Shown here in pieces: positions 6,266-45,755 of a DNA stretch of 64,000 nucleotides; position 1 is the first letter of the stretch, and each line of letters starts with the position of its first letter. The translations under genes were made by a program, and so were the position numbers. Origin of the DNA: an uncultured Actinomycetota bacterium (GTDB taxonomy: Bacteria; Actinomycetota; Actinomycetes; Jiangellales; Jiangellaceae); the NCBI GenBank assembly GCA_963799425.1, contig CAWCXA010000011.1, positions 99,263-163,262 of the forward strand. The letters are read 5' to 3'. The notes under the pieces are model-generated. The model was given only the letters and a program-made list of their open reading frames with translations. It was not told the origin of the DNA and did no database searches.

Positions 6266-6499
6266 CATCGTCGCCGCGACTGTTACAGCTCCTCGATGGC
6301 GGCCTGCGCAGTTCCTGCACCGAATCCGTCGCATCGCCGATTACCCGAGCAGGGGATGACGGGATAGTCGAATCGTCGGCACACGCTCCGCCGCCGACGT
6401 CAGAGCCTCACCAACAGCACGACGTTCAGGATCCTGCAGTCCTTGCGTCACGACATCGGCGCCGGATCGCAGGTCCATCCCCTGAGAGAAGGGACCGGC

Positions 6500-7107: not shown

Positions 7108-7989
7108 ATGAATGTGACACTCACCGGTGCAACCGGGTTCATCGGATCTCACGTACTGGCGGAGCTCCAAGCACACGGTCACGAGGTGACGGCGCTTGTG
7201 CGCGACGACGCCCAGGCCGACGTCGTCTCCGCCCGTGGCGCCAAGCCGACCGTCGTCGACCTCTATGACCGACCGGCGGTAGCCGATCTGCTCAGCAGTG
7301 CAGACGGAGCTATCCACACCGCCAGTCCGGGCGACGCCACCAGCGCAGCCTTGGATTCGGCCGTCGTGGATGCCGCGATCAATGCGTTCGCGGGCACTGG
7401 CAAGCCATACCTTCACATCAGCGGTCTATGGGTGTACGGCGCCAACCCGTCCATCACCGAGCAGTCCCCTTTCAATGCACCTGCACTGGTGTCGTGGAGG
7501 GAACCGATCGAACGCCGAATACTCAGCGCGGAAGACATGCGCGGAGTCGTGATCGTTTCCGGTGTCGCGTACGGCGACGGGGGCGGCGGGGTTCCCGGAC
7601 TGCTTCTGGGATCGCCCCGAGACGACGCGGGCAATCTGATCATGCTCGGCACGGGACAACAACACTGGCCGACCGTCCATGTTGCGGATCTGGCTGACAT
7701 GTTCCGCCGCGCGTTCGAATCCGGCTCGGCCCGCGGCTACTACGTCATCGGCAACGGAGAGAATTCGACCGCTGCGGACCTGACCGCAGCGGCCGCCGTC
7801 GCAGTCGGCGCTCCGGGAGCGGTTCCCGGTTCAGACGACGAGGCTCGGGCGCGCTTAGGCGACTACTTTGCCGAAGTCCTCCTGCTCGATCAGAGCACCG
7901 TCGCAGCCAAGGCTCGATCAGAGCTTGGTTGGTCCCCCAGCCACCCGGGACTCGTCGACGAGTTCCGCCACGGTAGCTATCGGAAGTGA
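7108..7989 (+). CDS. NAD-dependent epimerase/dehydratase-family (atypical SDR) protein
   Basis: 293 aa. N-terminal Rossmann motif MNVTLTGATGFIGSHV. AGGAGG about 9 nt upstream of the ATG. Confidence 0.8.
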   Translation: MNVTLTGATGFIGSHVLAELQAHGHEVTALVRDDAQADVVSARGAKPTVVDLYDRPAVADLLSSADGAIHTASPGDATSAALDSAVVDAAINAFAGTGKPYLHISGLWVYGANPSITEQSPFNAPALVSWREPIERRILSAEDMRGVVIVSGVAYGDGGGGVPGLLLGSPRDDAGNLIMLGTGQQHWPTVHVADLADMFRRAFESGSARGYYVIGNGENSTAADLTAAAAVAVGAPGAVPGSDDEARARLGDYFAEVLLLDQSTVAAKARSELGWSPSHPGLVDEFRHGSYRK

Positions 7990-26395: not shown

Positions 26396-28196
<1,801 letters not shown>

Positions 28197-28242
28197 TAAT
28201 CTGTATCTTCGACGGGCAGACATGCGGTGTCAAATCACGGAC

Positions 28243-28281
28243 TGTCCACATGCGTACGCGGCGACGGCGCGCCGTCCACAG
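28243..28281 (+). promoter_or_regulatory. composite direct-repeat element TGTCCACATGC-N20-GTCCACAG (copy A, upstream of comEA)
   Basis: Read directly from the sequence as cTGTCCACATGCGtacgcggcgacggcgcgccGTCCACAGtc. It ends 50 nt before the comEA ATG (28332). Identical architecture occurs at 38771 and 45471. Confidence 0.6.
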
Positions 28282-28331
28282 TCTTGGTCAGCACCGTGGG
28301 ACCCGGCGGCCGGCGACCCTAGCGTCGAAAC

Positions 28332-29240
28332 ATGTCCCTCTGGAGCCGGCGTCGGGAGCGGCGCGTCCTGCAGCAGCAGGCGCGGCAACGGCTGGCCGCC
28401 GTGTTACCGCCGCCGAGTGCCGGTTGGGTGCCAAGCGATCCACCTTCCGGGGGTTCGGCCACACCTGAGCCGTCTCGGGGCAGGCATCGCCAGCCGCGGG
28501 CGAGGAGTCACCTCGTCGACCGGCTTCCTGTGCGGCTGCGGGCTTTGCTGGCTCGGCTCGGGGCGGGGCAGGAGTTCGGGCTCGACCGAGGGCACGCCGT
28601 CGTGCTTGTCCTTCTTGCCTGCCTTGGAGTCGGCGTTGCGATGGTCGTCGTCTTGGCCAGCCGTCCCGACGAGATCGAGATCCCGACGCGGACGATGACC
28701 TCGTCGCCGACAGCCACGGGGGAGGCCGGTGCGCCGTTGGCGACCGAGGAGCCGAGCTCGGGCGAAACCCCTGCACCTACCCCTGGTGCGGAGGGGGACG
28801 CCGTCACCGTGCACGTCGCGGGGCAGGTGGCGCAACCGGGGTTGATCCGGCTTCCCGCGGGGTCGCGGGTCGACGATGCGCTGCATGCGGCGGGGGGCGC
28901 ACTCCCCGGTGTCGACCTTTCAGACCTCAACCTGGCCCGCCTGCTCTCCGACGGTGAGCAGGTCGCGGTGGGAATTGAGGGAGCCGCCGATGCCCAGCCG
29001 GGTCGCGGCGCGGCTGACGGCGGAGCCGCGGCGGCGGGGTCGGGCGGCGGTCTCGTCGATCTCAACCACGCGACCCTCGAGGAGCTCGACACGTTGCCAG
29101 GCGTCGGGCCGGTTCTTGCCCAGCGGATCCTCGACTGGCGGTCAGCCAATGGGCAGTTCACGACGGTCGACGAGCTGCAAGAGGTGAGCGGCATCGGCCC
29201 CAAGGTCTTCGCGACGCTGGTCCCGAAGGTTCACGTGTGA
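28332..29240 (+). CDS. comEA: ComEA-family DNA-binding protein (TM + SLBB-like + helix-hairpin-helix)
   Basis: 302 aa. C-terminal HhH VDLNHATLEELDTLPGVGPVLAQRILDWRSANGQFTTVDELQEVSGIGPKVF. Confidence 0.85.
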   Translation: MSLWSRRRERRVLQQQARQRLAAVLPPPSAGWVPSDPPSGGSATPEPSRGRHRQPRARSHLVDRLPVRLRALLARLGAGQEFGLDRGHAVVLVLLACLGVGVAMVVVLASRPDEIEIPTRTMTSSPTATGEAGAPLATEEPSSGETPAPTPGAEGDAVTVHVAGQVAQPGLIRLPAGSRVDDALHAAGGALPGVDLSDLNLARLLSDGEQVAVGIEGAADAQPGRGAADGGAAAAGSGGGLVDLNHATLEELDTLPGVGPVLAQRILDWRSANGQFTTVDELQEVSGIGPKVFATLVPKVHV

Positions 29241-32146
29241 AGGCGGCGCCTGGATCCTTAGGCGACGGCGCACACGACGGATATGCACGTGATCTGCGAC
29301 TGACCCTGCCCGCCGTCGCGTGCATCCTGGGCGCGTTGTGCGGCCTGTTGCTACGCCCAGCGACCGCCGTCGCTGGGGTTGCAGTGGTTGTGGGCCTGCT
29401 CGCGCTTGGCGCCGCGGCGTGGCCAGCGGCGCGTCGCACGCTCGCGGTGCTCGCAGTCTGCGTCGTCGCCGCCGCCCTGTGCGCGGGGCTGCGTGCCGCT
29501 CTGCTTCGTGCCGGGCCGCTCGCCGATCTCGCTGCGCAGGGTGCTCAAGTCACGGTCGAGGCCGTCATCACCAGCGACCCGGCGCTGCGCGAGAGCAACC
29601 GGTCGTGGGACGACGCGCGCCGCCCGTACGTCGTGGTCAGCGCGCGCGTCCACCAGGTGACGGGTCGCGGCCACACGTTCGAGCTGCGCGCGCCGGTGAC
29701 GCTGATCGCCGACGAGTCGTGGGCCGATGTAAGACCCGGCCAGCGGGTCGCCAGCACGGGGCGGCTCGATCGTGCGGAGCCAGGGGAGCCGATCACCGCC
29801 GTGCTGCAGGCCAACGGTCCGCCGGACGTATTGGACGAGGCGGGCACCCTGCAGGCGTTTGCGGAGCCGCTGCGGGCTGGGCTGCGGGAGTCGGTCTCTA
29901 GCCTGCCGCCGGACGTCGGCGGTTTGGTGCCGGCGCTGGTCGTGGGGGACGAGGTGCTCCTCCCACAACAGGTCCGCGACGACATGCAGGAGACCGGGCT
30001 GACCCATCTCACCGCGGTCAGCGGGGCCAACGTGAGCTTGCTGCTTGCCGCTGTGCTCGGGCTGGCCCGCTGGTGCGGAGTGCGTGGCTATTGGCTGCCA
30101 GTCGTCGGGGCAGTCTGCGTGCTCGCCTTCGTCGTCGTGGCACGCCCGCAGCCGAGTGTGGTTCGGGCGGCTGCGATGGGACTTGTGGCACTGGGCGCAC
30201 TTAGCGCCGGCGGCCGACACCGCGGAGCCGCCAACCTGTCGATTGCAGTGCTCGTGCTGGTGCTCGTCGACCCCTGGCTGGCCCGCTCGGCCGGGTTCGC
30301 CCTGTCTGTGCTCGCCACTGGCGGCATCTTGTTTCTGGCGCCGGGGTTGAGCGCGGCCGCCGAGCGATGGATGCCGCACTGGGTCGCTGTCGCACTTGCA
30401 GTGCCGCTCGGCGCCCAGCTTGCCTGCACACCGATCGTGGTTGCCCTGTCCGACGAGCTCAGCCTGGTGTCATTGCCGGCCAACCTGCTGGTCGCACCGG
30501 CAGTCGGCCCGACGACTGTCGCTGGCGCCCTCGCGTCGGTCACGGCGCCGCTGCTGCCCTGGATGGGGATTGCCGCGGCGTGGGTGGCTGGCGGCGCAGC
30601 GTGGTGGATCGTGACCGTTGCGCAGCACGGTGCGGACCTGCCGGGTGCGGCAGTGACCCTCGCAGGCAGCCCGTTCGTGCTCATAGTCCTACTCCTTGCG
30701 TGCCTTGCCGGGTGCGTGCTGCTGCCGGCGTTGCTCCGACGACGTGCAGCCACGGCAGCCGCCGGCGCTGCGCTCGTGGTTGCCGTCCTGCGACCGGGCA
30801 GCATGGGCGTCCTGCCCGGGTTGTCCACCTGGCCACCCGACAACTGGGTGCTCGTTGCGTGCGATGTCGGTCAGGGTGATGCGCTTGCGGTGAGGGCCGG
30901 CGAGGGCTCGGCTCTGGTGGTCGACGCGGGCGGCGATGCGGGCGCTGTCGGCCGCTGCCTTGACGACTTGCACGTGCGCGAGGTGCCCAGCCTCGTGCTC
31001 ACCCACTTCCACGCCGACCACGTCGACGGGCTCGCCGGTGTGCTCCAGGGACGAGAGGTCGGCGAGATCATCATCTCGCCGCTGCCTGACCCTGCCGCAC
31101 AGGCAGATGACGTTGCGGAGACCGCGGCCGCGGAGCAGATTCCCGTCCGGCAGGCTCGAGCCGACGATAGGCGTGTCACGGGCGAAATCACGTGGACGGT
31201 GCTCTGGCCGCGACGGGTCATCCACGAGGACTCGATGCCCAACAACGCGAGCATCGTGCTGATGGTCGAGGTCGCCGATTCGCGGATACTGCTTACCGGA
31301 GACGTCGAGCCGCCGGCGCAGCGCGCCATCCTCCGCAGCGGGGCCGATCTCTCCGCCGACGTGCTGAAGGTGCCGCACCACGGTTCCGTGTATCAGGAGC
31401 CGGACTTCCTGGCCGCGACCGGCGCGCGGGTTGCGCTTGTGTCCGTGGGTGCCGACAACGATTACGGTCACCCGGCGCCCGAGACTCTGCGGTCGCTTGA
31501 AGCTGCCGGCGCACTGGTGCAGCGTACGGATCGCTCGGGTGACGTCGCTGTCGCTGGCGGTGGGCGACGCCTCTCAGTCGTGCAAAAGGGCGCGGCGCTC
31601 GCTAGTGGTGCCGATCGGGCGGCTCGGTCAAACGTCGGCGCGTCGATCGAGCTCGCCACGCACGACATCGACAATGGCGTCGTCGGAAAGTCCGGCATTG
31701 CGCAGCGTGGCGACGAACGCGCGAGCGGCCTGCCGGGCGATGACCTCGGCGGCGGCCGCTCGCTCGGCGACAACCGTGCCCGCTCGCCGCCGCGTGACGA
31801 CGGCTCCGGATGTCTCGAGCTCGCGATAGGCACGGGCGACCGTTCCGGCAGCGACACCAAGCTCGCTGGCGAGGTGTCGGATCGCGGGGAGCTGGTCGCC
31901 GGGCAGCAGCCGCCCGGAGGCAATGTGTGCCTCGAGCTGGCTGCGGATCTGCTCGTACGGTGCAACGCGCGACGCACTGTCAAGCTCGACGGGGGCAGCA
32001 CTGTCGCTCATCCCCGGCCGCCTGGCACACATGTCAGCACGCCAGCACAATGGCACACCCCGCACCCATCCGACTGGGGCTGCGGGGTGTGTCCAGTTCT
32101 GTCGTCGCGTCATGGCATGCTGCGCAGCGATGGCTCGACGCGCTGA
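29237..32146 (+). CDS. comEC: ComEC/Rec2 DNA internalisation channel protein (multi-TM + MBL-fold domain); 3' end anomalous
   Basis: 969-aa ORF. Competence TM core, then the MBL domain (ACDVGQGDA, THFHADHVDGL, LKVPHHGS). The family-like sequence ends near 31600, but the first in-frame stop is at 32144-32146. Confidence 0.75.
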   Translation: MKAAPGSLGDGAHDGYARDLRLTLPAVACILGALCGLLLRPATAVAGVAVVVGLLALGAAAWPAARRTLAVLAVCVVAAALCAGLRAALLRAGPLADLAAQGAQVTVEAVITSDPALRESNRSWDDARRPYVVVSARVHQVTGRGHTFELRAPVTLIADESWADVRPGQRVASTGRLDRAEPGEPITAVLQANGPPDVLDEAGTLQAFAEPLRAGLRESVSSLPPDVGGLVPALVVGDEVLLPQQVRDDMQETGLTHLTAVSGANVSLLLAAVLGLARWCGVRGYWLPVVGAVCVLAFVVVARPQPSVVRAAAMGLVALGALSAGGRHRGAANLSIAVLVLVLVDPWLARSAGFALSVLATGGILFLAPGLSAAAERWMPHWVAVALAVPLGAQLACTPIVVALSDELSLVSLPANLLVAPAVGPTTVAGALASVTAPLLPWMGIAAAWVAGGAAWWIVTVAQHGADLPGAAVTLAGSPFVLIVLLLACLAGCVLLPALLRRRAATAAAGAALVVAVLRPGSMGVLPGLSTWPPDNWVLVACDVGQGDALAVRAGEGSALVVDAGGDAGAVGRCLDDLHVREVPSLVLTHFHADHVDGLAGVLQGREVGEIIISPLPDPAAQADDVAETAAAEQIPVRQARADDRRVTGEITWTVLWPRRVIHEDSMPNNASIVLMVEVADSRILLTGDVEPPAQRAILRSGADLSADVLKVPHHGSVYQEPDFLAATGARVALVSVGADNDYGHPAPETLRSLEAAGALVQRTDRSGDVAVAGGGRRLSVVQKGAALASGADRAARSNVGASIELATHDIDNGVVGKSGIAQRGDERASGLPGDDLGGGRSLGDNRARSPPRDDGSGCLELAIGTGDRSGSDTKLAGEVSDRGELVAGQQPPGGNVCLELAADLLVRCNARRTVKLDGGSTVAHPRPPGTHVSTPAQWHTPHPSDWGCGVCPVLSSRHGMLRSDGSTR
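31628..32011 (-). CDS. small GntR-family (wHTH-only, YtrA-like) transcriptional regulator
   Basis: 127 aa from ATG 32011. APYEQIRSQLEAHIASGRLLPGDQLPAIRHLASELGVAAGTVARAYRELETSGAVVTRRRAGTVVAE. It lies entirely antisense within the comEC ORF tail. Confidence 0.8.
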   Translation of the reverse strand: MSDSAAPVELDSASRVAPYEQIRSQLEAHIASGRLLPGDQLPAIRHLASELGVAAGTVARAYRELETSGAVVTRRRAGTVVAERAAAAEVIARQAARAFVATLRNAGLSDDAIVDVVRGELDRRADV

Positions 32147-33107
32147 CCACGTACTTGCCCCTGTCACCCTGGTGATCGGGCCTGAGAGTCTGCTCGCCGA
32201 CCGCGCGGTGCACGCCGTCGCGGCCGCGGCTCGCCGAGCTGACGCCGAAGCCGAGGTGATCGACGCGGCCGCTGCTGACCTCTCGGCCGGGTCCTTCGCC
32301 GAGCAGGTTGGGCCCTCGCTGTTCGCAACCCGCCGGGTCTTGGTGCTCAGAGACATCCAGGATGCCGGTGATGACCTGTCGGCGGCGCTGCGCGGCTACG
32401 CGGCGGCTCCAGCCGACGACGTCCAGCTCGTGCTCGTGCACGGCGGCGGCATCAAGGCCAAGGCCCTCGTCGATGCGTTGCGCAAGGCAGGTGTCCAGCA
32501 GATCCAGGCAGAGCGCGTGACCCGGTTCGACGATCAGGTCGCGTTCGTGGGCGCGGAGGTGGCTGCGGCCGGGTCACGCATCAGCGACTCGGCGGCGCGA
32601 CGGCTGGTTGACTCGGTCGGAGCAGACTTGCGTGGGCTGGCCGCCGCCGCGGAACAACTCGCGGCCGACGCCGATGGGCCGGTGACCGATGAGGTGGTCG
32701 CTCGCTATTTCGACGGTCGGGCCGAAGTCAAGGGTTGGACCATCGCCGACCGCGCGATGGAGGGTCGCACCAGCATCGCTGTCGAGGAGCTGCAGTGGGC
32801 ACTCGACACGGGCACCGTGCCGGTGCTTGTTGTTGGGGCGCTGGCGGCAGCGGTCCGTACGTTGGCACGGCTCGGCACACTCGGGCGCGGGTTGCGCGAC
32901 GCCGACGTGGCACGTGAGCTCGGGGTGCCGCCGTGGAAGCTGTCTTCGCTGCGCCGCCAGCTGCAGGGCTGGACGCCGGCCGGTCTGGAGCGCGCCCTCC
33001 AGGCCGTCGCCACGGCCGATCTGGCAGTCAAGGGTGGCTCAAACGATGCCCGGCTTGCGCTCACCAGGGCACTGGTGGAGATCGGTGCGGCGCGAGCGGC
33101 CGCCTGA
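32130..33107 (+). CDS. holA: DNA polymerase III subunit delta
   Basis: ORF 31923..33107 trimmed to ATG 32130 (an alternative ATG lies at 32112). 326 aa. LAPVTLVIGPESLLADRAV...RVLVLRD.... The position after comEC is the conserved one. Confidence 0.8.
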   Translation: MARRADHVLAPVTLVIGPESLLADRAVHAVAAAARRADAEAEVIDAAAADLSAGSFAEQVGPSLFATRRVLVLRDIQDAGDDLSAALRGYAAAPADDVQLVLVHGGGIKAKALVDALRKAGVQQIQAERVTRFDDQVAFVGAEVAAAGSRISDSAARRLVDSVGADLRGLAAAAEQLAADADGPVTDEVVARYFDGRAEVKGWTIADRAMEGRTSIAVEELQWALDTGTVPVLVVGALAAAVRTLARLGTLGRGLRDADVARELGVPPWKLSSLRRQLQGWTPAGLERALQAVATADLAVKGGSNDARLALTRALVEIGAARAAA

Positions 33108-37480: not shown

Positions 37481-38329
37481 ATGGGGCAGAACACATTGCG
37501 GGCACGCTCGCCCAGCGTCGTCGGCGCACCGGGGAAGCCGCCCAGCCTACGGTTCGAGAAGGCACTCCTGCGCCAGGGGCACACGCTCGTCGCCGCGTGC
37601 GACGAGGTTGGCCGCGGCGCGCTGAGTGGGCCTGCCACGGTCGGCGTGGTGCTGGTCGATGTCAGCGTCCAACGACTGCTGCCCGGGCTGCGTGACAGCA
37701 AGCTGCTCCTGCCGGAGGCCCGCGAGCGGCTTGCCCCGCGGATCCGGCGCTGGGCACTTGCGACCGCAGTGGGTCACGCCAGCGCCTGCGAGGTCGATGC
37801 GATGGGCATTCTGCCGGCCCTGCGACTTGCCGGCCGCCGAGCACTAGGCGCGCTGCCCGCTCGCCCCGACGTGATCATCCTCGACGGCAACCACGACTAC
37901 CTGACACCGCCGGCCCAGCGAGGCTTGTTCGATCTCGAGCCCGTACTCGATGACGAAGATGTACCACCCGTCGTGACCAAGATCAAAGCCGATCTGACCT
38001 GCGCATCTGTTGCAGCGGCAAGCGTCCTTGCCAAGACTGAGCGTGACCGGCTCATGGTCCGGCTTGCAGATATTTATCCCGGTTTCGCATGGGAGATAAA
38101 CAAGGGATACGCAACGCCTGAGCACATGGCGGCAATCCGTCGGCTCGGACCATGCGAGCAGCACCGCCGGACCTGGCGGCTGCCGCTGCGCGAGCTGGCC
38201 GCCCTCGAAGAAGCGGCGGCGGCTGTCCTTGGCAGGCACGGCTTCGACCCTGAGGAGGCGGGCATGACGAGCCTCGAGGCGCTCCTGGGTGACAATGGAG
38301 CCGTCGAGGCCGAGCGTCAGCCGGCCTGA
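37481..38329 (+). CDS. rnhB: ribonuclease HII
   Basis: ORF trimmed to ATG 37481. ACDEVGRGALSGPATVGVV, DSKLL, ASVLAKTERDRLM and GYATPEH. Confidence 0.9.
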   Translation: MGQNTLRARSPSVVGAPGKPPSLRFEKALLRQGHTLVAACDEVGRGALSGPATVGVVLVDVSVQRLLPGLRDSKLLLPEARERLAPRIRRWALATAVGHASACEVDAMGILPALRLAGRRALGALPARPDVIILDGNHDYLTPPAQRGLFDLEPVLDDEDVPPVVTKIKADLTCASVAAASVLAKTERDRLMVRLADIYPGFAWEINKGYATPEHMAAIRRLGPCEQHRRTWRLPLRELAALEEAAAAVLGRHGFDPEEAGMTSLEALLGDNGAVEAERQPA

Positions 38330-38381
38330 CCCGGCGGCGTCAGACGTCGTCGGGGGGCACGTCGAGAAGGGCAGGCAGGGC

Positions 38382-38702
38382 GTGAGCGCCGAGGACCTCG
38401 AGAAGTACGAGACCGAGATGGAGCTCTCGCTCTACAAGGAGTACCGCGACGTGGTGGGCCTTTTCTCGTACGTTGTCGAGACTGAGCGGCGGTTCTATCT
38501 GACCAACAACGTCGACCTGCAGGTCCGCAGTGACGGTGGCGAGGTCTACTTCGAGGTGACGATGAGCGACGCGTGGGTCTGGGACATGTATCGCCCGGCG
38601 CGCTTCGTCAAGAACGTGAAGGTCGTGACGTTCAAGGACGTCAACGTAGAGGAGCTCGCCAAGAGCGACTTGGAGATCAAGTCGCCGCCGTTCGGATCCT
38701 GA
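38382..38702 (+). CDS. DUF2469 domain-containing protein
   Basis: ORF trimmed to GTG 38382. SAEDLEKYETEMELSLYKEYRDVVGLFSYVVETERRFYLTN.... This is the conserved actinobacterial neighbour of rnhB. Confidence 0.8.
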   Translation: MSAEDLEKYETEMELSLYKEYRDVVGLFSYVVETERRFYLTNNVDLQVRSDGGEVYFEVTMSDAWVWDMYRPARFVKNVKVVTFKDVNVEELAKSDLEIKSPPFGS

Positions 38703-38770
38703 TCCGGTTAGGCCCTGGTTCGGCGGCACGCCGCCGGGCGACCGCGTTCGTCCGATTCGACGCGGCCGGT

Positions 38771-38809
38771 TGTCCACATGCGCTGTGAGGGCCCCTCGGC
38801 TGTCCACAG
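38771..38809 (+). promoter_or_regulatory. composite direct-repeat element TGTCCACATGC-N20-GTCCACAG (copy B, upstream of yraN-comM-dprA)
   Basis: Read directly as tTGTCCACATGCGctgtgagggcccctcggcTGTCCACAGtt. It ends 39-63 nt before the candidate yraN starts (38849, 38858, 38873). Confidence 0.6.
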
Positions 38810-38848
38810 TTGCGCGGTCTGATCTTCTCGCCATCCTTCTGCGCCGCG

Positions 38849-39232
38849 ATGGTGGTCGTGGAGGTGGTGCACGTGCGGGCCAAGGACGGGGTCGGATCCT
38901 ACGGCGAGAGGGTGGCCGAGCGGCACCTGATCGAGGCCGGGTTCACGGTGATCGACCGCAACTGGCGCTGTGACGTCGGGGAGGTCGATCTCGTGGCCTT
39001 CGACGGCGAGGACCTGGTGATCTGCGAGGTCAAGACACGCTCGTCTGATGCCTTTGGCGCGCCGCTCGAGGCGGTCACGCCCGTCAAGCTCCGCCGCTTG
39101 TGGCTGCTGGCCATGAGATACGCCGCCGCGCATGACGTTGCCTATCGACAGCTGCGAGTAGACGCCGTTGCCGTGCTCAGGCAGCGCAAGGGTGCGGCAG
39201 TCGTCGAGCACATCCGGGGGATCGGCTCATGA
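38849..39232 (+). CDS. YraN-family (UPF0102) endonuclease-like protein
   Basis: GERVAERHLIEAGFTVIDRNWRCDVGEVDLVAFDGEDLVICEVKTR. The start is uncertain (ATG 38849, GTG 38858 or 38873). The stop overlaps the comM start. Confidence 0.8.
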   Translation: MVVVEVVHVRAKDGVGSYGERVAERHLIEAGFTVIDRNWRCDVGEVDLVAFDGEDLVICEVKTRSSDAFGAPLEAVTPVKLRRLWLLAMRYAAAHDVAYRQLRVDAVAVLRQRKGAAVVEHIRGIGS

Positions 39233-40776
39233 CCGTGGCCCGCACGCACTGTGTCGCATTGCTCGGCATCGAAGGGCGCATGGTCGAGGTCGAGGCAGAT
39301 ATTGCCAATGGGATTCCAGGGTTCGTTCTCGTGGGGTTGCCCGACGCCACGCTCAACGAAGCGCGGGATCGGGTGCGATCGGCACTCGTCAACTCAGGCG
39401 AGGGATGGCCGCAGCGGCGGCGCACCGTGAGCCTCTCACCGGCCGACCTGCCCAAGAAGGGCAGTCACTTCGACCTGGCGATCGCGGTTGCCATTGCGGC
39501 CGCCGCCGGCACGGTGCCGCCGTCGGCGCTCGATGGCATGGTCTTCCTCGGCGAGCTGGGTCTCGACGGGCGAGCGAGGTCTGTTCCTGGCGTGTTGCCC
39601 GCCGTTCTGGCGTCGTCAAAGCGCGGCTTCACTCAGGTGGTTGTGCCCGAGGCCAATGCGGCCGAAGCCACGCTTCTGCCGGAGATGGCTGTGCTCGGGA
39701 TCCGGTCGCTTCGTCAGTTGCTAGCAGTGCTCCGTGGCGACCTGGTGCCGGACGAGCCGTCCGTTCCGACCGAGGAGGTCGTCTCCGAATCACCCCTGCC
39801 GCGGCTCTCGCTCGACATGGCCGACGTCGTGGGTCAGGCAACGGCACGGACGGCCGCAGAGGTGGCGGCCGCTGGGATGCACCACGTGATGATGATCGGG
39901 CCACCCGGATCGGGGAAGACGATGATCGCCGAGCGGCTGCCCGGCCTCCTGCCCGACCTCGATGCCGAGGAGGCGCTCGAGGTGACGGCAGTGCACTCGC
40001 TGGCCGGACTGTTGCACCCAGGGCAGCCGCTGGTGACGACGCCTCCATTCGCCGACCCGCACCACACCGCTTCCGTGGCCGCGATGGTTGGTGGTGGTTC
40101 GGGGGTCGCGCGCCCAGGTGCCGTCAGCCAGGCACATCGAGGAGTCCTGTTCATGGATGAGGCGCCGCAGTTCGGCGTTCGAGTGATCGATGCGCTGCGG
40201 GAGCCGCTGGAGAAAGGCGAGGTGCTCATGGCGCGCAGCCAGCGATCGATCCGGTTCCCGGCTCGCTTCCTGCTTGCGATGGCAGCCAATCCGTGTCCGT
40301 GTGGCTACTTCGGCCAACTGGACCACCCCTGTCAGTGTCTGCCCGACGCCGTGCGGCGCTACCGTCAGCGCATTTCCGGCCCGATCCGGGACCGCATCGA
40401 CCTCTGGGTCAAGGTCCCTTCCGTCAGAAGGTCTGCCCTCCTCGCAGGGCTCGGCCAGTCGGAGTCCAGCGTGACGGTTGCGGCGCGCGTTGCGGAGGCC
40501 CGGCTCCGGCAGCGACGGCGTTACACCGGGCTGCCGTGGCGGTGCAACGGCGACGTGCCAGGACCTGAGTTCCGCCGTCGTTGGCCGCTTTCCGCCGATG
40601 TTCTGGCCCCCGTCGAGGAAGCGCTACGCCTCGGGGAGCTCACCGCCCGCGGCGCCCATCGATCCATCCGGGTGGCCTGGACGGCGGCCGACCTGGCCGG
40701 GCGTAACCGACCGATCCTCGACGACACGGCGTTTGCTGTCGCCCAGCACCTCGAGACTCGGGCGGCCGCCGCATGA
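39229..40776 (+). CDS. comM: YifB/ComM-family Mg-chelatase-like AAA ATPase
   Basis: 515 aa. Lon-like N-domain, Walker A MIGPPGSGKTM, VLFMDEAPQF and a Cys cluster NPCPCGY...CQC. Confidence 0.9.
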   Translation: MTVARTHCVALLGIEGRMVEVEADIANGIPGFVLVGLPDATLNEARDRVRSALVNSGEGWPQRRRTVSLSPADLPKKGSHFDLAIAVAIAAAAGTVPPSALDGMVFLGELGLDGRARSVPGVLPAVLASSKRGFTQVVVPEANAAEATLLPEMAVLGIRSLRQLLAVLRGDLVPDEPSVPTEEVVSESPLPRLSLDMADVVGQATARTAAEVAAAGMHHVMMIGPPGSGKTMIAERLPGLLPDLDAEEALEVTAVHSLAGLLHPGQPLVTTPPFADPHHTASVAAMVGGGSGVARPGAVSQAHRGVLFMDEAPQFGVRVIDALREPLEKGEVLMARSQRSIRFPARFLLAMAANPCPCGYFGQLDHPCQCLPDAVRRYRQRISGPIRDRIDLWVKVPSVRRSALLAGLGQSESSVTVAARVAEARLRQRRRYTGLPWRCNGDVPGPEFRRRWPLSADVLAPVEEALRLGELTARGAHRSIRVAWTAADLAGRNRPILDDTAFAVAQHLETRAAAA

Positions 40777-41957
40777 CCGGGGCGGATCGGCCGGCGAGCT
40801 CACCCGACCTGCTCGAGGGGCAGGATGAGAGGCACGCACGCGCGCTCCTTACAGCGATCTGGGAGCCGGGAGACATCCCCTTCGGGCAGCGGGTGGCCGA
40901 GATCGGTGCCGTGCGCGTCGTCGCAGAGCTGCGCGACGGTTCACTGCCTCGGACCTCGACGGCTCGCCAAGGACTTGCCGCCGATCGCGCCCGGGTGATC
41001 AACGTCGCCGAGCTGCTCGATGCCGCCGCGCGCCGGGGCATCCGGTTCGTCATCCCCGGCGATGCCGAGTGGCCCGACTCCCTGGGCGTGCTCGACATGG
41101 TGAGCCTCGACAACATGGGCGGCCAGCCATACGGACTGTGGCTGCGTGGCCCGCTCGACCTGGCGGAGACATTGCGGCGATCGGTGTCAGTTGTGGGCGC
41201 GCGCGCCGCAAGTGCTTACGGAGAGCACGTCGCCACCGACGTGGCCGCCGGGTTGGCGGACCGGGGGGTGGCTGTCATGTCGGGGGCCGCCTACGGCATC
41301 GACTCGGCAGCTCATCGGGGCGCCCTCGCGGTCGGCGGGGCCACGATCGCGGTGCTGGCCTGCGGGGTCGACGTGATCTACCCGCGAGGTAACGCGAGTC
41401 TGCTAGGACGGGTCGCCGACGAGGGCCTCATCGTGAGCGAGGCGGCACCGGGTGCGACGCCCACGCGCCCGCGATTCCTGATTCGCAACCGCATCATTGC
41501 CGCGGCCACGCCTGGCACGGTCGTCGTGGAGGCAACTCCCCGGTCTGGCGCGCTAAACACGGCCAACTGGGCAGACAAATGCTCCCGCCAGGTCATGGGC
41601 GTCCCGGGCCCGGTGACATCGTCACTGTCGGCGGGTGTGCACGAGCGAATACGAAGCAGCGCCACGTTGGTGACCAGCAGCGCCGAGATCCTCGAGCTGA
41701 TCGGGCCCATTGGGACCGATACGGCGCCCGTGCCGAGGGGCCCGGAGCGTCCACGCGATGGTTTGCCGTCCGCGGCCGTCACCGTGCTCGAAGCAATGCC
41801 CAGCCGAGGTTGCGTCACGGTCGACGAGCTGTGCGCGACCACGCCGATCGCGCCGCGCGAGTGCATCGCGGCGCTGGGCTTGCTCATGGCTCGTGGGTTG
41901 GTGCAGTCCTCGCCCACCGGCTGGTCGCTCACCCGGCTGGCACGCACCGGAGGTTGA
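40773..41957 (+). CDS. dprA: DNA-processing protein DprA (Smf)
   Basis: 394 aa. VVGARAASAYGEHVA...MSGAAYGIDSAAHRGAL...RFLIRNRIIAA...GALNTA. Confidence 0.9.
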   Translation: MTGADRPASSPDLLEGQDERHARALLTAIWEPGDIPFGQRVAEIGAVRVVAELRDGSLPRTSTARQGLAADRARVINVAELLDAAARRGIRFVIPGDAEWPDSLGVLDMVSLDNMGGQPYGLWLRGPLDLAETLRRSVSVVGARAASAYGEHVATDVAAGLADRGVAVMSGAAYGIDSAAHRGALAVGGATIAVLACGVDVIYPRGNASLLGRVADEGLIVSEAAPGATPTRPRFLIRNRIIAAATPGTVVVEATPRSGALNTANWADKCSRQVMGVPGPVTSSLSAGVHERIRSSATLVTSSAEILELIGPIGTDTAPVPRGPERPRDGLPSAAVTVLEAMPSRGCVTVDELCATTPIAPRECIAALGLLMARGLVQSSPTGWSLTRLARTGG

Positions 41958-43111: not shown

Positions 43112-44611
43112 TCATCGCTCAACGGAGGCGTCGTCGGGCACCCCCGCGACGACCGCGGCGATGTTGTGCTGCGACTCGGTGCCCGCGTCGAGGTAACTCG
43201 AGTGCCCGGTGATGCGCTCACGTTCCGCGGTACCGTCCGTCTCGAGCCGGATCGCGCCGAATGCTTCCTCACCCGGGTCGGCACCGAAGCGGCTCAGCAT
43301 CGCAATCCAGTCGCGGTCGGCCTCCGCGACATAGACCGCACCGTCGTCGAGCCGGACGTCGTCGGCTTCGTCAACGCCGATGCCGGGTGACCCGAGCAGG
43401 ACCAGGTCATCGACCCCGTGATGGGCGACGCCCAACGTCTGCCCGGCGACCAAGGATCCGTACGAGTGCCCGATCACGGTGACGTGCGAGTCGCGCCCTG
43501 CCACCAGCGCCCGCTGCGCGAGGCCGTCCAGCGTGCCGCGCAAGAGGGTCGATCCGGCTCGTGCAGACTTCGTGAACGCGGCTTCCAGACCCTGCGGGGT
43601 TTTGTAGCCCAACCAGGCGATCACCGCGACCGGCCCCGACGTCATTCTTGTCGCTGTCCGCTGCAGCGCCTCAGCCTTGCCGACGAGGGAGTCCAGGTCG
43701 GCCGAGACGGTCGTCGACATGCCCGGCACCAGCAGCGCGACATGTCGGGCCGTCTCGGGATTGCCGACGGACACGACGGCGTGGCCGCGCGCCGGATCGA
43801 ACGCCACCAGCAACCGATCCGGGTGGCCCGTCACCTGCGACCCCACCCGCTCGAGCAGCTCGAGCCGATCAGCCAACGCGATCAGGTGCTGAAGGGTCTC
43901 TCTCATGCCCGGCTGCGCCGCGGATCGCAGCTCGGCGAGCGCCTGCGAACGGGACTCACGCAGGAGGCGTCGGTTGGCCCGATCTCGAACTGTTGCCGGC
44001 AGACCGTCCAGCGTGCCGAGCCAGCTGGGAGCGTCACGCCGAAGGTCTTGGCGACGGGAAGGCGGCAGTGCCGCCCACCACTCCGCCACCTGGCCAGCCG
44101 CGCGGACGCCGCCGAGTGGCCGCGACATCGCGATGGGACAACCGGCAACGACTTCGCTCGGCGGCCACGTCGTCGACCAGCGCGGCACATCGGCGACGAG
44201 GACTCGGTTCAATGCCTGCAGCCGATCGACTAGTGCGATAACCCCTGTCGCGACGACTCGCTCCGCATCGTTGGCGAGCTCGTCTGCGGCACCCGCCGGG
44301 AACACCGGCCCACCGGCGGAGTCCCGAGCGACCTGCGCCAGCTCGCGAGCTCGATCGAGCTGTTGGCCGCCAGCTCGGACGACCGCGGCAACGCGTCGTG
44401 ACTCGACCTCGACCGCACGAACCGCGTCGTGCAGTCGGGCCAGGGGCCACGCCGCTGCGTCGGCCGCGGCTCCAGCCCAGCCCTGCGTGAGCGTCGAGAT
44501 GGCGATGCGGAGCAGGGCGACAAGATCCGCCAGGCGGTCGGCTTCGGTGCCTAGTAGCCGAGCGGCGTTGTGCAGCTGCTCGGGCGGCCCGAGGCCGAGG
44601 GCGCGACTCAT
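43112..44611 (-). CDS. alpha/beta hydrolase (DUF1023-like) with N-terminal WXG100-like helical domain
   Basis: 499 aa. The N-terminus is a helix-turn-helix with a W-x-G motif (TLTQGWAGAAADAA). The C-terminal hydrolase has the nucleophile elbow VIGHSYGS. Confidence 0.75.
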   Translation of the reverse strand: MSRALGLGPPEQLHNAARLLGTEADRLADLVALLRIAISTLTQGWAGAAADAAAWPLARLHDAVRAVEVESRRVAAVVRAGGQQLDRARELAQVARDSAGGPVFPAGAADELANDAERVVATGVIALVDRLQALNRVLVADVPRWSTTWPPSEVVAGCPIAMSRPLGGVRAAGQVAEWWAALPPSRRQDLRRDAPSWLGTLDGLPATVRDRANRRLLRESRSQALAELRSAAQPGMRETLQHLIALADRLELLERVGSQVTGHPDRLLVAFDPARGHAVVSVGNPETARHVALLVPGMSTTVSADLDSLVGKAEALQRTATRMTSGPVAVIAWLGYKTPQGLEAAFTKSARAGSTLLRGTLDGLAQRALVAGRDSHVTVIGHSYGSLVAGQTLGVAHHGVDDLVLLGSPGIGVDEADDVRLDDGAVYVAEADRDWIAMLSRFGADPGEEAFGAIRLETDGTAERERITGHSSYLDAGTESQHNIAAVVAGVPDDASVER

Positions 44612-44874
44612 CTCGTTGCGGCTCGCCGATCGGCGGATTCGTAGCCGTCCGCAGCCCAGTCGAGCCGAGCACTCAGAGAGACGATGCGGAGCACCAGCCG
44701 GGTGCCGACGTCGTCCACGTCAGCTCCGGTGATGTGCGCGCCAAGGCGCGGCAGCGCGTCCACGATGAGTGCGAGCGCGCGTTCCGGCCGAGGCTCGCCG
44801 ATCCGGTCGGTGCCCTGGCGAAGCCGGTGTGCCACGGCCCGCAGCAGTGCCGGGTCGGCCGAGAACCCATTCAC
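44608..44874 (-). CDS. small helical protein (88 aa), possibly ESX/EspC-like secretion-associated
   Basis: GTG 44874 preceded by GGAGG. VNGFSADPALLRAVAHRLRQGTDRI.... The start overlaps the M23 stop (GTGA) and the stop overlaps the hydrolase start (ATGA). The family assignment is weak. Confidence 0.5.
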   Translation of the reverse strand: MNGFSADPALLRAVAHRLRQGTDRIGEPRPERALALIVDALPRLGAHITGADVDDVGTRLVLRIVSLSARLDWAADGYESADRRAATR

Positions 44875-45419
44875 CGCGACCTCCGCCCGAGCACTGCTCC
44901 CTGGATTGGCAGCAGTCGCACCCGGAGGTGCCCGAAGAGCAGTCGCGGATCGAGGTAGAGCGACCCTCGCCGCAAGCCGAAATGCAGGCAGGCGGCCGGC
45001 GCGCAGTGACCGCCACGATCTTCGATCGTGCCGATGACGGTCGCGACCGTGACAAGGTCGCCTCGGCCGACCTGGGCAGCCACGGGCTCGTACGTGGTGG
45101 TCAGCGGCCCGTGGCTGATGGACACGACGCCCCGTCCGGCGACCACGCCCGCGAACCGCACAACGCCGGTGCCCGCCGCGCGCACCGGGGTGCCGACCGG
45201 GGACTGCAGGTCGAGTCCGCGGTGACCGGACAGCCAGGGCAGCGGTGGTGGCGCGAAGTCCCGAACCACATCCGGCGGACTCGTGGGCCACATCCAGCCG
45301 GCGGCCGACGCCGGCTGAGTCACCCGGATCGCCGCGCTTGGCATCGCCGGCAGCACGGCCGTGACGAGCGCGAGGGCAACGAGCCCCAGTGTTCTCCGGG
45401 CGGTTAGGGACGATCTCAT
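44871..45419 (-). CDS. secreted M23-family metallopeptidase
   Basis: Only the last 182 codons of the 809-aa track ORF are used. Signal peptide MRSSLTARRTLGLVALALVTAVL, then HRGLDLQSPVGTPVRAAGTGVV...HCAPAACLHFGLR. Conserved position divergent from rpsB. Confidence 0.85.
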   Translation of the reverse strand: MRSSLTARRTLGLVALALVTAVLPAMPSAAIRVTQPASAAGWMWPTSPPDVVRDFAPPPLPWLSGHRGLDLQSPVGTPVRAAGTGVVRFAGVVAGRGVVSISHGPLTTTYEPVAAQVGRGDLVTVATVIGTIEDRGGHCAPAACLHFGLRRGSLYLDPRLLFGHLRVRLLPIQGAVLGRRSR

Positions 45420-45470
45420 GCTTTCGAGCGTCCGCCCGGCTTGATCATGAGGACAGTGCTCCGAGTGGCT

Positions 45471-45509
45471 CTGTGGACGTGGGCCGCTGTCGGACGCGGC
45501 ATGTGGACA
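45471..45509 (-). promoter_or_regulatory. composite direct-repeat element TGTCCACATGC-N20-GTCCACAG (copy C, upstream of the M23 peptidase operon)
   Basis: The minus strand reads cTGTCCACATGCCgcgtccgacagcggcccacGTCCACAGag. It ends 51 nt before the M23 ATG (45419). Confidence 0.6.
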
Positions 45510-45755
45510 GGCCGCCCACCGGCCCGTTGGACCCCTGCCCGCGTACTCCCGTACACTCAGGGGGCGACCCGTGCACCATGGGTCGACTTCGCACGCCCTG
45601 GGCCAGTTCGGTCCGCACCCGCGTGCCCCAACGGTCCCCGGCGCCAGCCGGGGCGGGGTTCGTACGAGGGCGTCAGGCGCGGCGGCCGACCGGTCGTCGC
45701 GAGGAACCGAGTGCGTCGGCCCCATGGGTCGGCGCGGAGGAGGTAGCGCACGGCT

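Follow-up and report, generated by a model that had tools for sequence, protein, structure and literature searches.

Which protein reads a DNA element that is common to the DNA-uptake genes comEA–comEC and to two other operons of an uncultured actinobacterium? The question is raised by a stretch of 64,000 nt (contig CAWCXA010000011.1, positions 99,263 to 163,262 of the forward strand; uncultured Jiangellaceae bacterium, Actinomycetota), hereafter the window, in which the 39-bp composite element TGTCCACATGC-N20-GTCCACAG stands upstream of comEA–comEC–holA, yraN–comM–dprA and a gene for an M23 peptidase. We found that each of its two repeats corresponds to the actinobacterial box for the replication initiator DnaA. 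The boxes are very probably a conserved regulatory site and, with more modest confidence, we consider DnaA to be the protein that reads them, in what would be a phylum-wide DnaA-box regulon. The DnaA-box motif itself is known; we found no earlier description of a link between it and these genes.

Exact matches to the composite element were located at 28243–28281 (+), 38771–38809 (+) and 45471–45509 (−), each oriented toward its downstream gene, and a scan of the window tolerating three or fewer mismatches gave no additional match. The number expected by chance from dinucleotide-preserving shuffles was 0.02, and three matches were reached in none of 100 shuffles. The heptamer GTCCACA alone was not enriched (10 copies in the window against 9.7 expected), and six of the ten copies belong to the three pairs; the signal therefore lies in pairing and placement. 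Four copies stand alone (5688, 15840, 46074 and 53802), not two as the original prediction had counted; one lies within rpsB and the remaining three are taken to be coding as well. From the end of the element to the start codon there are 50 nt at comEA (ATG, 28332), 51 nt at M23 (ATG, 45419) and 63 nt at yraN (GTG, 38873). Thus, the three copies, their uniqueness as pairs within 64 kb and their distances to the start codons were all as originally described. Pfam bore out the identities given to the downstream genes, with matches to ComEA, ComEC, UPF0102/YraN, ComM, DprA, Peptidase_M23 and Abhydrolase_8, the last accompanied by a weak WXG100 match.

The high-affinity DnaA box of Mycobacterium tuberculosis and Streptomyces coelicolor is TTGTCCACA (PMC4285127, Table 1). 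In the window, it is matched at all nine positions at 38770–38778 and at eight of nine at 28242–28250, 38800–38808 and 45502–45510, while the two remaining boxes, CCGTCCACA and ACGTCCACA, match at seven of nine. At comEA, the distal box (R1) reads cTGTCCACAtgc (28243–28253, +; about −89 to −79 from the putative transcription start) and the proximal box (R2) cCGTCCACAG (28274–28281, +; about −58 to −51). The yraN promoter carries the perfect DnaA box within its R1, gTTGTCCACAtgc (38771–38781, +), followed by the R2 cTGTCCACAG (38802–38809, +). The M23 promoter, an exact match to the composite, has cTGTCCACAtgc again as R1 (45499–45509, −) and aCGTCCACAG as R2 (45471–45478, −). By sequence, the 39-bp element is a direct pair of actinobacterial DnaA boxes with cores 30 bp apart, and the repeats can no longer be regarded as an undescribed motif.

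We then compared the boxes of many lineages. A pyrimidine occupies the second position 5′ of TCCACA in 46 of 49 boxes (27 of 30 proximal and 19 of 19 distal), the base immediately 5′ of TCCACA is G in 34 and A in five of the 49, and in 26 of 30 proximal boxes TCCACA is followed by G. The resulting consensus, YYG-TCCACA-(G), is that of the actinobacterial DnaA box in a relaxed form, extended by a single conserved G. The variants TTATCCACA and TGATCCACA, which are the canonical boxes of Escherichia coli/Bacillus subtilis and of Caulobacter (PMC4285127), were found at the equivalent promoter position in other lineages; three loci (L042, L043 and L058) have TTATCCACAG at the proximal position, where mycobacteria have TGATCCACAG. 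The flank variation across orthologous sites thus follows the specificity of DnaA.

To footprint the element phylogenetically, as had been proposed, close relatives of the window were collected. An exact composite scan of 185,579 species (one genome each, 596 Gb) gave just seven matches, with approximately three to four expected by chance in 596 Gb by our estimate; the 39-bp composite is therefore lineage-specific. Three of the seven lie on one contig of an uncultured Actinomycetota metagenome-assembled genome (MAG), CAVWSM010000006.1, whose ComEA is 83% identical to that of the window, and they mark its comEA, yraN and M23 promoters, with identical cores and diverged spacers. Three more relatives (ena contig_26055, contig_42260 and contig_40351; ComEA about 63% and M23 76–78% identical) were reached via protein homologues, and their boxes are 30 bp apart at comEA, yraN and M23. 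In all four relatives, both box cores are kept at all three promoters, again with diverged spacers. The proximal box always reads GTCCACAG, being invariant in relatives at comEA and conserved at M23 in loci L005, L077, L078 and L079; the distal comEA box is kept in L007 and L070. The tail of R1 varies, with ATGC in some sites, AACC or AGGT in others, and TTATGCACATGC as the yraN R1 of one relative. The ATGC tail, which had been included in the predicted motif, is thus lost in some close relatives. When nine sites from the three operons are aligned, nothing is invariant except the two heptamers and, in a hexamer downstream, one A and one T. Upstream of yraN, L078 (16604–18184) and L079 (17204–18103) have an AMP-binding or thiolase gene in place of DUF2469/rnhB (window 38289–38702); the locus has therefore been rearranged, yet both boxes and their distance to the −10 hexamer are intact.

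The arrangement was also detected in distant lineages. In Nocardioides daedukensis, the M23 and yraN promoters each carry a pair of TCCACAG boxes with a spacing of 28 bp, 38–39 nt from the −10 hexamer; in Actinoplanes sp. OR16, the pairs at these two promoters have a spacing of 17 bp. At comEA, a single TTTCCACAGG box, 37 nt before TACCTT, is present in Kribbella monticola and in a related metagenomic contig. Many metagenomic loci whose ComM is just 40–57% identical carry a box before yraN at the same place as the proximal box of the window, for example TTATCCACAG in a contig of 70% G+C and three canonical boxes clustered in a contig of 51% G+C. Distant M23 promoters have CTCCACA, as does the yraN promoter on the same contig in L067. 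Across approximately 1 Mb of fetched loci, exact TCCACA pairs 14–33 bp apart were found almost only at the comEA, yraN and M23 promoters, with box-to-box distances of 17, 18, 23, 27, 28 or 30 bp. Of the element, just two features are general: the TCCACAG cores, and where the proximal box stands with respect to the −10 hexamer. Uncultured lineages as well as Nocardioides, Actinoplanes and Mycobacterium conserve the arrangement, so that it probably ties these genes to the replication initiator DnaA.

The actinobacterial −10 element follows the pattern nAnnnT. At all three sites in the window, such a hexamer lies exactly 38 nt past the proximal box: TAGCGT at comEA (28320–28325, +; 6 nt before the ATG at 28332), GATGGT at yraN (38848–38853, +; 6 nt before the first G of GGAGGTGG, with a putative start at about 38860) and GACGCT at M23 (45427–45432, −; 7 nt before the ATG at 45419). 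At comEA, TAGCGT followed by 6–7 nt and ATG is retained in L007, L070 and a Jiangellaceae contig that ends 30 nt upstream of comEA, the box region falling outside it. The yraN candidates in six lineages, at 38–39 nt, are GATGGT, GAAGGT, GACGGT, GAGCCT, GACTCT and GATCCT, and those of M23 in five genomes, at exactly 38 nt, are GACGCT, GAGGCT, GACTCT or GAGTCT. Altogether, nAnnnT occurs 37–39 nt after TCCACAG in 22 of 28 tabulated comEA, yraN and M23 promoters from many lineages. The two Actinoplanes promoters instead have 29 nt at this place, and Mycobacterium has 50 nt; these distances are steps of about one helical turn. Relative to the predicted transcription starts, the proximal box would span roughly −58 to −52, and the distal one roughly −88 to −82.

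Because the hexamer is located 6–7 nt before the ATG, the comEA and M23 mRNAs are predicted to be leaderless, and the yraN transcript would start at the Shine–Dalgarno sequence. The putative yraN start coincides with the first Shine–Dalgarno base (GGAGGTGG or AGGAGG) in several distant lineages (window 38854–38873, the Nocardioides locus L081 and the loci of group A), so that the yraN leader would be very short and begin with the ribosome-binding site. A standard scan of the three regions for sigma-70 −35/−10 pairs gave no pair and no recognisable −35 element, a terminator scan of the same regions gave no terminator, and scanning the window under relaxed conditions (TCCACAG with one mismatch, together with the 38-nt geometry) gave no further convincing promoter. 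Taken together, the identity of the two repeats, their variable spacing and the presence of a separate −10 hexamer support the proposal that the repeats form a transcription-factor site rather than −35/−10 boxes. The proposal that the three sites are one cis-regulatory element common to three operons is supported as well.

A DnaA-binding datum was found for one orthologous promoter. Mapping of mycobacterial DnaA revealed five strong sites, namely oriC, rpmH–dnaA, upstream of dnaB, Rv0010c–Rv0011c and Rv3843c (Hicks et al. 2020, PMC7738170). S8 Table of the same study, which gives windows enriched more than 5-fold in any condition (roughly 45–50 regions genome-wide), includes a 'Rv2415c -92 nt' window enriched 3.6–7.5-fold by purified M. 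tuberculosis DnaA at 300 nM in DNA affinity purification and sequencing in vitro (IDAP-seq); the site is not discussed in the main text (PMC7738170). Rv2415c is the ComEA homologue (PMC2587704). The corresponding M. tuberculosis-complex locus (L082) was fetched via RpsT. Its gene order is rpsT–holA–comEC–comEA–eis–degV, and its comEA–eis gap of 339 nt agrees with the 92 + 248 nt in S8 Table. Upstream of comEA, the sequence runs gcTTGTCCACAGcctcggattgaTCCACAGcag, then 50 nt, TACGGT, 6 nt and ATG. The promoter thus contains two direct boxes, TTGTCCACAG and TGATCCACAG, 18 bp apart, with a perfect TTGTCCACA box 82–90 nt before the comEA start codon. Other mycobacteria keep both boxes and their geometry despite a different upstream neighbour. 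The Rv2415c promoter resembles that of the window in being an orthologous comEA promoter with two direct boxes, a −10 hexamer and a leaderless ATG; it differs in box spacing (18 bp versus 30 bp) and in the distance from the proximal box to the −10 hexamer (50 nt versus 38 nt). This IDAP-seq site is the sole experimental DnaA-binding datum for the regulon.

We suppose that each of the two boxes would be bound by one DnaA monomer and that the monomers would interact via their AAA+ domains; monomeric binding is favoured over a rigid dimer because the box spacing varies. The promoter would consist of a −10 hexamer only, with the boxes at a fixed upstream position, and the proximal DnaA monomer would sit upstream of RNA polymerase, always on one face of the helix, and modulate the polymerase. 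DnaA activates or represses according to context (2021 review); here, since the core promoter is not overlapped by the boxes, activation may be somewhat likelier than repression. Occupancy by DnaA in this organism would couple the status of replication initiation to the three operons, and thereby to DNA uptake (comEA and comEC), the clamp-loader delta subunit (holA), the processing of incoming DNA and recombination (yraN–comM–dprA) and peptidoglycan hydrolysis (M23).

The original prediction had drawn an analogy with competence regulons that include fratricins, which we regard as speculation: given holA, a replisome gene, in the comEA operon and xerC after dprA, a replication or cell-cycle reading fits as well as competence. 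The competence regulons of Firmicutes and Proteobacteria (ComK boxes, the ComX/SigX cin-box and CRP-S/Sxy) likewise place one cis-element before dispersed operons and contain comEA/EC, dprA, comM or radA-type genes, ssb and murein hydrolases. They differ in having unrelated motifs, and Actinomycetota have no known ComK, ComX or Sxy system, such systems being reported absent from Micrococcus luteus; moreover, the operons studied here include holA, and most of these bacteria are not known to undergo transformation. With the known DnaA regulon (dnaA autoregulation, sda and others in B. subtilis, nrd in E. coli and cell-cycle genes in Caulobacter), the sites have in common the same asymmetric 9-mer upstream of promoters, a type of box that a DnaA monomer binds. 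Unlike its members, these operons are not among the targets in the 2021 review, which mentions neither competence nor holA, nor among the five strong mycobacterial sites, and the strict, helically phased position relative to the −10 element and the conserved G at +1 of the box are non-standard features. In our literature searches, no published link between DnaA and competence genes and no description of this regulon were found; searches on the bare motif (GTCCACA with comEA, or TGTCCACA alone) returned noise only.

Several observations weigh against DnaA as the binder. In the boxes, conservation is loose at positions 1–3 of the 9-mer, the strongly conserved G after ACA in the proximal box is not predicted by the DnaA consensus, the TGC tail of R1 lacks an explanation, and in the yraN R1 of L070 the DnaA-like part has degenerated to TTATGCACA with CACATGC retained. 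Strict positioning relative to a −10 hexamer is typical of dedicated activators. As for the binding data, enrichment of the Rv2415c window was weak, 1.4–3.0-fold at 150 nM (PMC7738170), and S8 Table is shared with many AT-rich PE/PPE promoters; Rv2898c (yraN) and Rv2891 (M23) are absent from it, the box content of these two promoters not having been examined, and DnaA ChIP-seq (chromatin immunoprecipitation followed by sequencing) with exponentially growing M. smegmatis gave five robust peaks, none annotated comEA.

The same features would be accounted for by a dedicated actinobacterial transcription factor that reads TCCACAG at about −55 and drives a competence-like regulon of DNA uptake and recombination, the likeness to DnaA boxes being coincidental or reflecting competition. 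We hold this to be a possible, though clearly less probable, explanation. In favour of such a factor are the conserved core TCCACAG(G) with its loose positions 1–3, the rigid 38-nt distance to the −10 hexamer, the loss of the DnaA-like 5′ part from the L070 R1, the R1 tail, the weak signal of M. tuberculosis DnaA in vitro and the lack of a comEA annotation among the M. smegmatis peaks. It is also favoured by the exact composite found before SSB-family, DUF222 and DUF559 genes in other genera (see below). A candidate class is the small essential HTH_17 'excisionase-family' protein of M. luteus: mutations in Mlut_14660 (HTH_17) change how active the comEA/EC promoter is (M. luteus literature). 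That literature, as of January 2026, states that the regulators of actinobacterial competence genes are unidentified; it names no cis-element or regulator for these genes in Actinomycetota and gives no promoter sequence, in agreement with the original remark that no equivalent was known. Against a dedicated factor, none is known and none is encoded beside the sites in a conserved manner, TTGT-, TTAT- and TGAT-CCACA are known DnaA-box variants, DnaA enriches the M. tuberculosis site in vitro, and the variable box-to-box spacing argues against a rigid oligomer. BldC, the best-studied HTH_17 protein, binds contiguous AATTxxxx(C) repeats, which differ in motif and spacing.

Two other types of binding site were considered and rejected. 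A BldC-family site consists of contiguous direct repeats of 9–10 bp with an AT-rich minor groove, whereas the boxes have no AT-rich tract and are separated by 10–23 unrelated bases; this rejection does not extend to other HTH_17 paralogues such as Mlut_14660. The GACAC(GCC) motif of WhiA/WhiB2 sites is absent from the boxes.

In a broader and still more tentative form, a master regulator acting instead of or alongside DnaA would govern a phylum-wide regulon of comEA/EC, comM, dprA, an SSB paralogue and a wall hydrolase from a site that overlaps and competes with DnaA boxes. If so, bacteria usually considered non-transformable would have a cryptic competence programme that is gated by replication status.

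Binding by an OmpR-type regulator such as MtrA, or by the HutC-type GntR encoded divergently from comEA (27402–28196), both named in the original prediction, is improbable. The MtrA regulon includes cell-wall hydrolases and dnaA, and resembles the present sites in its direct repeats, phylum-wide conservation, control of cell-wall hydrolases and interaction with dnaA/oriC. Nevertheless, the MtrA consensus, (G/T)T(G/A)ACC-N5-GT(G/T)ACN, has 6-bp repeats with an 11-bp period (PMC5650626), whereas the boxes read TCCACAG at spacings of 17–30 bp, so that neither the repeat sequence nor the period fits. In the window, the MAG and L070, gntR and comEA are divergent genes; gntR is missing beside comEA in Kribbella and Mycobacterium, where the boxes persist next to a different neighbour, and it is not near yraN or M23, which carry the boxes as well. 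Moreover, HutC-type regulators bind palindromes.

That the repeats are the −35 and −10 elements of an alternative sigma promoter of the extracytoplasmic-function (ECF) type is slightly less credible again. Some proximal boxes start with CGTC, which recalls generally known ECF −10 motifs, and no sigma-70 pair was detected in these regions by the standard scan. However, both elements are identical, whereas sigma regions 4 and 2 read different motifs; their spacing ranges from 17 to 30 bp between lineages, where a fixed spacer of 16–20 bp would be expected; Kribbella has one box only; and, at a constant distance downstream, an nAnnnT hexamer distinct from both stands 6–7 nt before a start codon. 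Finally, a transcribed RNA element or a repeat or mobile remnant without a regulatory role, which has nothing beyond the repetition itself in its favour, is scarcely conceivable, given that the whole window has no Rfam match at the gathering threshold, RNAalifold gave 0 consensus pairs for the nine aligned sites, just the two 7-mers and the −10 positions are invariant between unrelated spacers, and the boxes are conserved at orthologous promoters across orders.

The DnaA reading provides a concrete cis-element and a specific candidate regulator for the DNA-uptake and DNA-processing genes of Actinomycetota. If true, it would enlarge the very small mycobacterial DnaA regulon of five strong sites and explain the secondary IDAP-seq site at Rv2415c. 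If DnaA is not the binder, the boxes would serve as bait for finding the missing regulator.

The four composite matches beyond the relatives of the window are located at 6338–6376 (−) in L006, 5704–5742 (−) in L003, 6644–6682 (+) in L001 and 6392–6430 (−) in L004. All are in Actinomycetota, lie upstream of and face an open reading frame (ORF), and have extended matches; most are without the 38-nt −10 geometry. The genes behind them encode an SSB-family protein (Candidatus Phosphoribacter hodrii), a DUF222 protein (another MAG), a DUF559 protein (Kineosphaera limosa) and PdxS (Paractinoplanes maris, 130 nt away). It is possible that they are additional members of the regulon.

The genes downstream of the three elements were delimited as follows. 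On the forward strand, comEA (28332–29240), comEC (29237–32146) and holA (32130–33107, its start overlapping the end of comEC) have overlapping frames and would form one operon (28332–33107), with synteny in L070 and in the M. tuberculosis locus L082. The second unit (38873–41957, +) comprises yraN/UPF0102 (38873–39232), comM (39229–40776) and dprA (40773–41957), as assigned from Pfam and ORFs, with xerC next, extending to 43090. The third (43112–45419, −) comprises the M23 peptidase gene (45419–44871) and the gene for an Abhydrolase_8 protein (44611–43112), in the same order in L077–L079; synteny of the pair extends to every relative of the window lineage, with an ORF of 88 aa between the two genes in L078 and L079. 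The Abhydrolase_8 protein, with its weak WXG100-like N-terminus, may be a secreted (ESX-type) hydrolase. For ComEA, the database starts in this lineage (P0001–P0003) are placed approximately 70–100 codons too far downstream, giving proteins of 199, 235 and 214 aa compared with 302 aa here; the N-terminal region read from the ATG at 28332 is conserved at the protein level in L007 and L070.

At the M23 promoter, a third, degenerate box, cTGTCCtCA (45448–45456, −), occurs in the stretch between R2 and the −10 hexamer, around −35 and 17 nt after the proximal box. It is confined to M23 promoters, without a counterpart at comEA or yraN. The equivalent in L077 is CTGTCCACG, the third-box position there (about 7967–7975) reading cTGTCCACg.

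In a large metagenomic group (L010–L015, L045, L049, L052–L054, L057, L063 and L068), the proximal yraN box is contained in a perfect hairpin, GGCCCCTGTCC-ACATA-GGACAGGGGCC, which is followed by a T-rich stretch. This hairpin looks like the terminator of the upstream DUF2469 gene, in which case terminator and box overlap.

In the related contigs, comM, dprA, tsf and a phosphoketolase gene are split into at least two called genes (L077 12423–14012; L079 13361–16085; L078 2796–5261 and 7728–8548), probably as a result of long-read frameshift errors and not as real pseudogenes. Between the start of the GntR gene (28196, −) and R1 of comEA, the motifs gcAGACA and GTCAA(a/g)T are kept in the gap (window 28197–28242; L070 9596–9640; L007 about 1085–1124), which in L070 reads cTTGTATCTT...AGCAGACAA. 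This conserved sequence, which is distinct from the DnaA boxes, may serve the HutC-type GntR itself as its operator.

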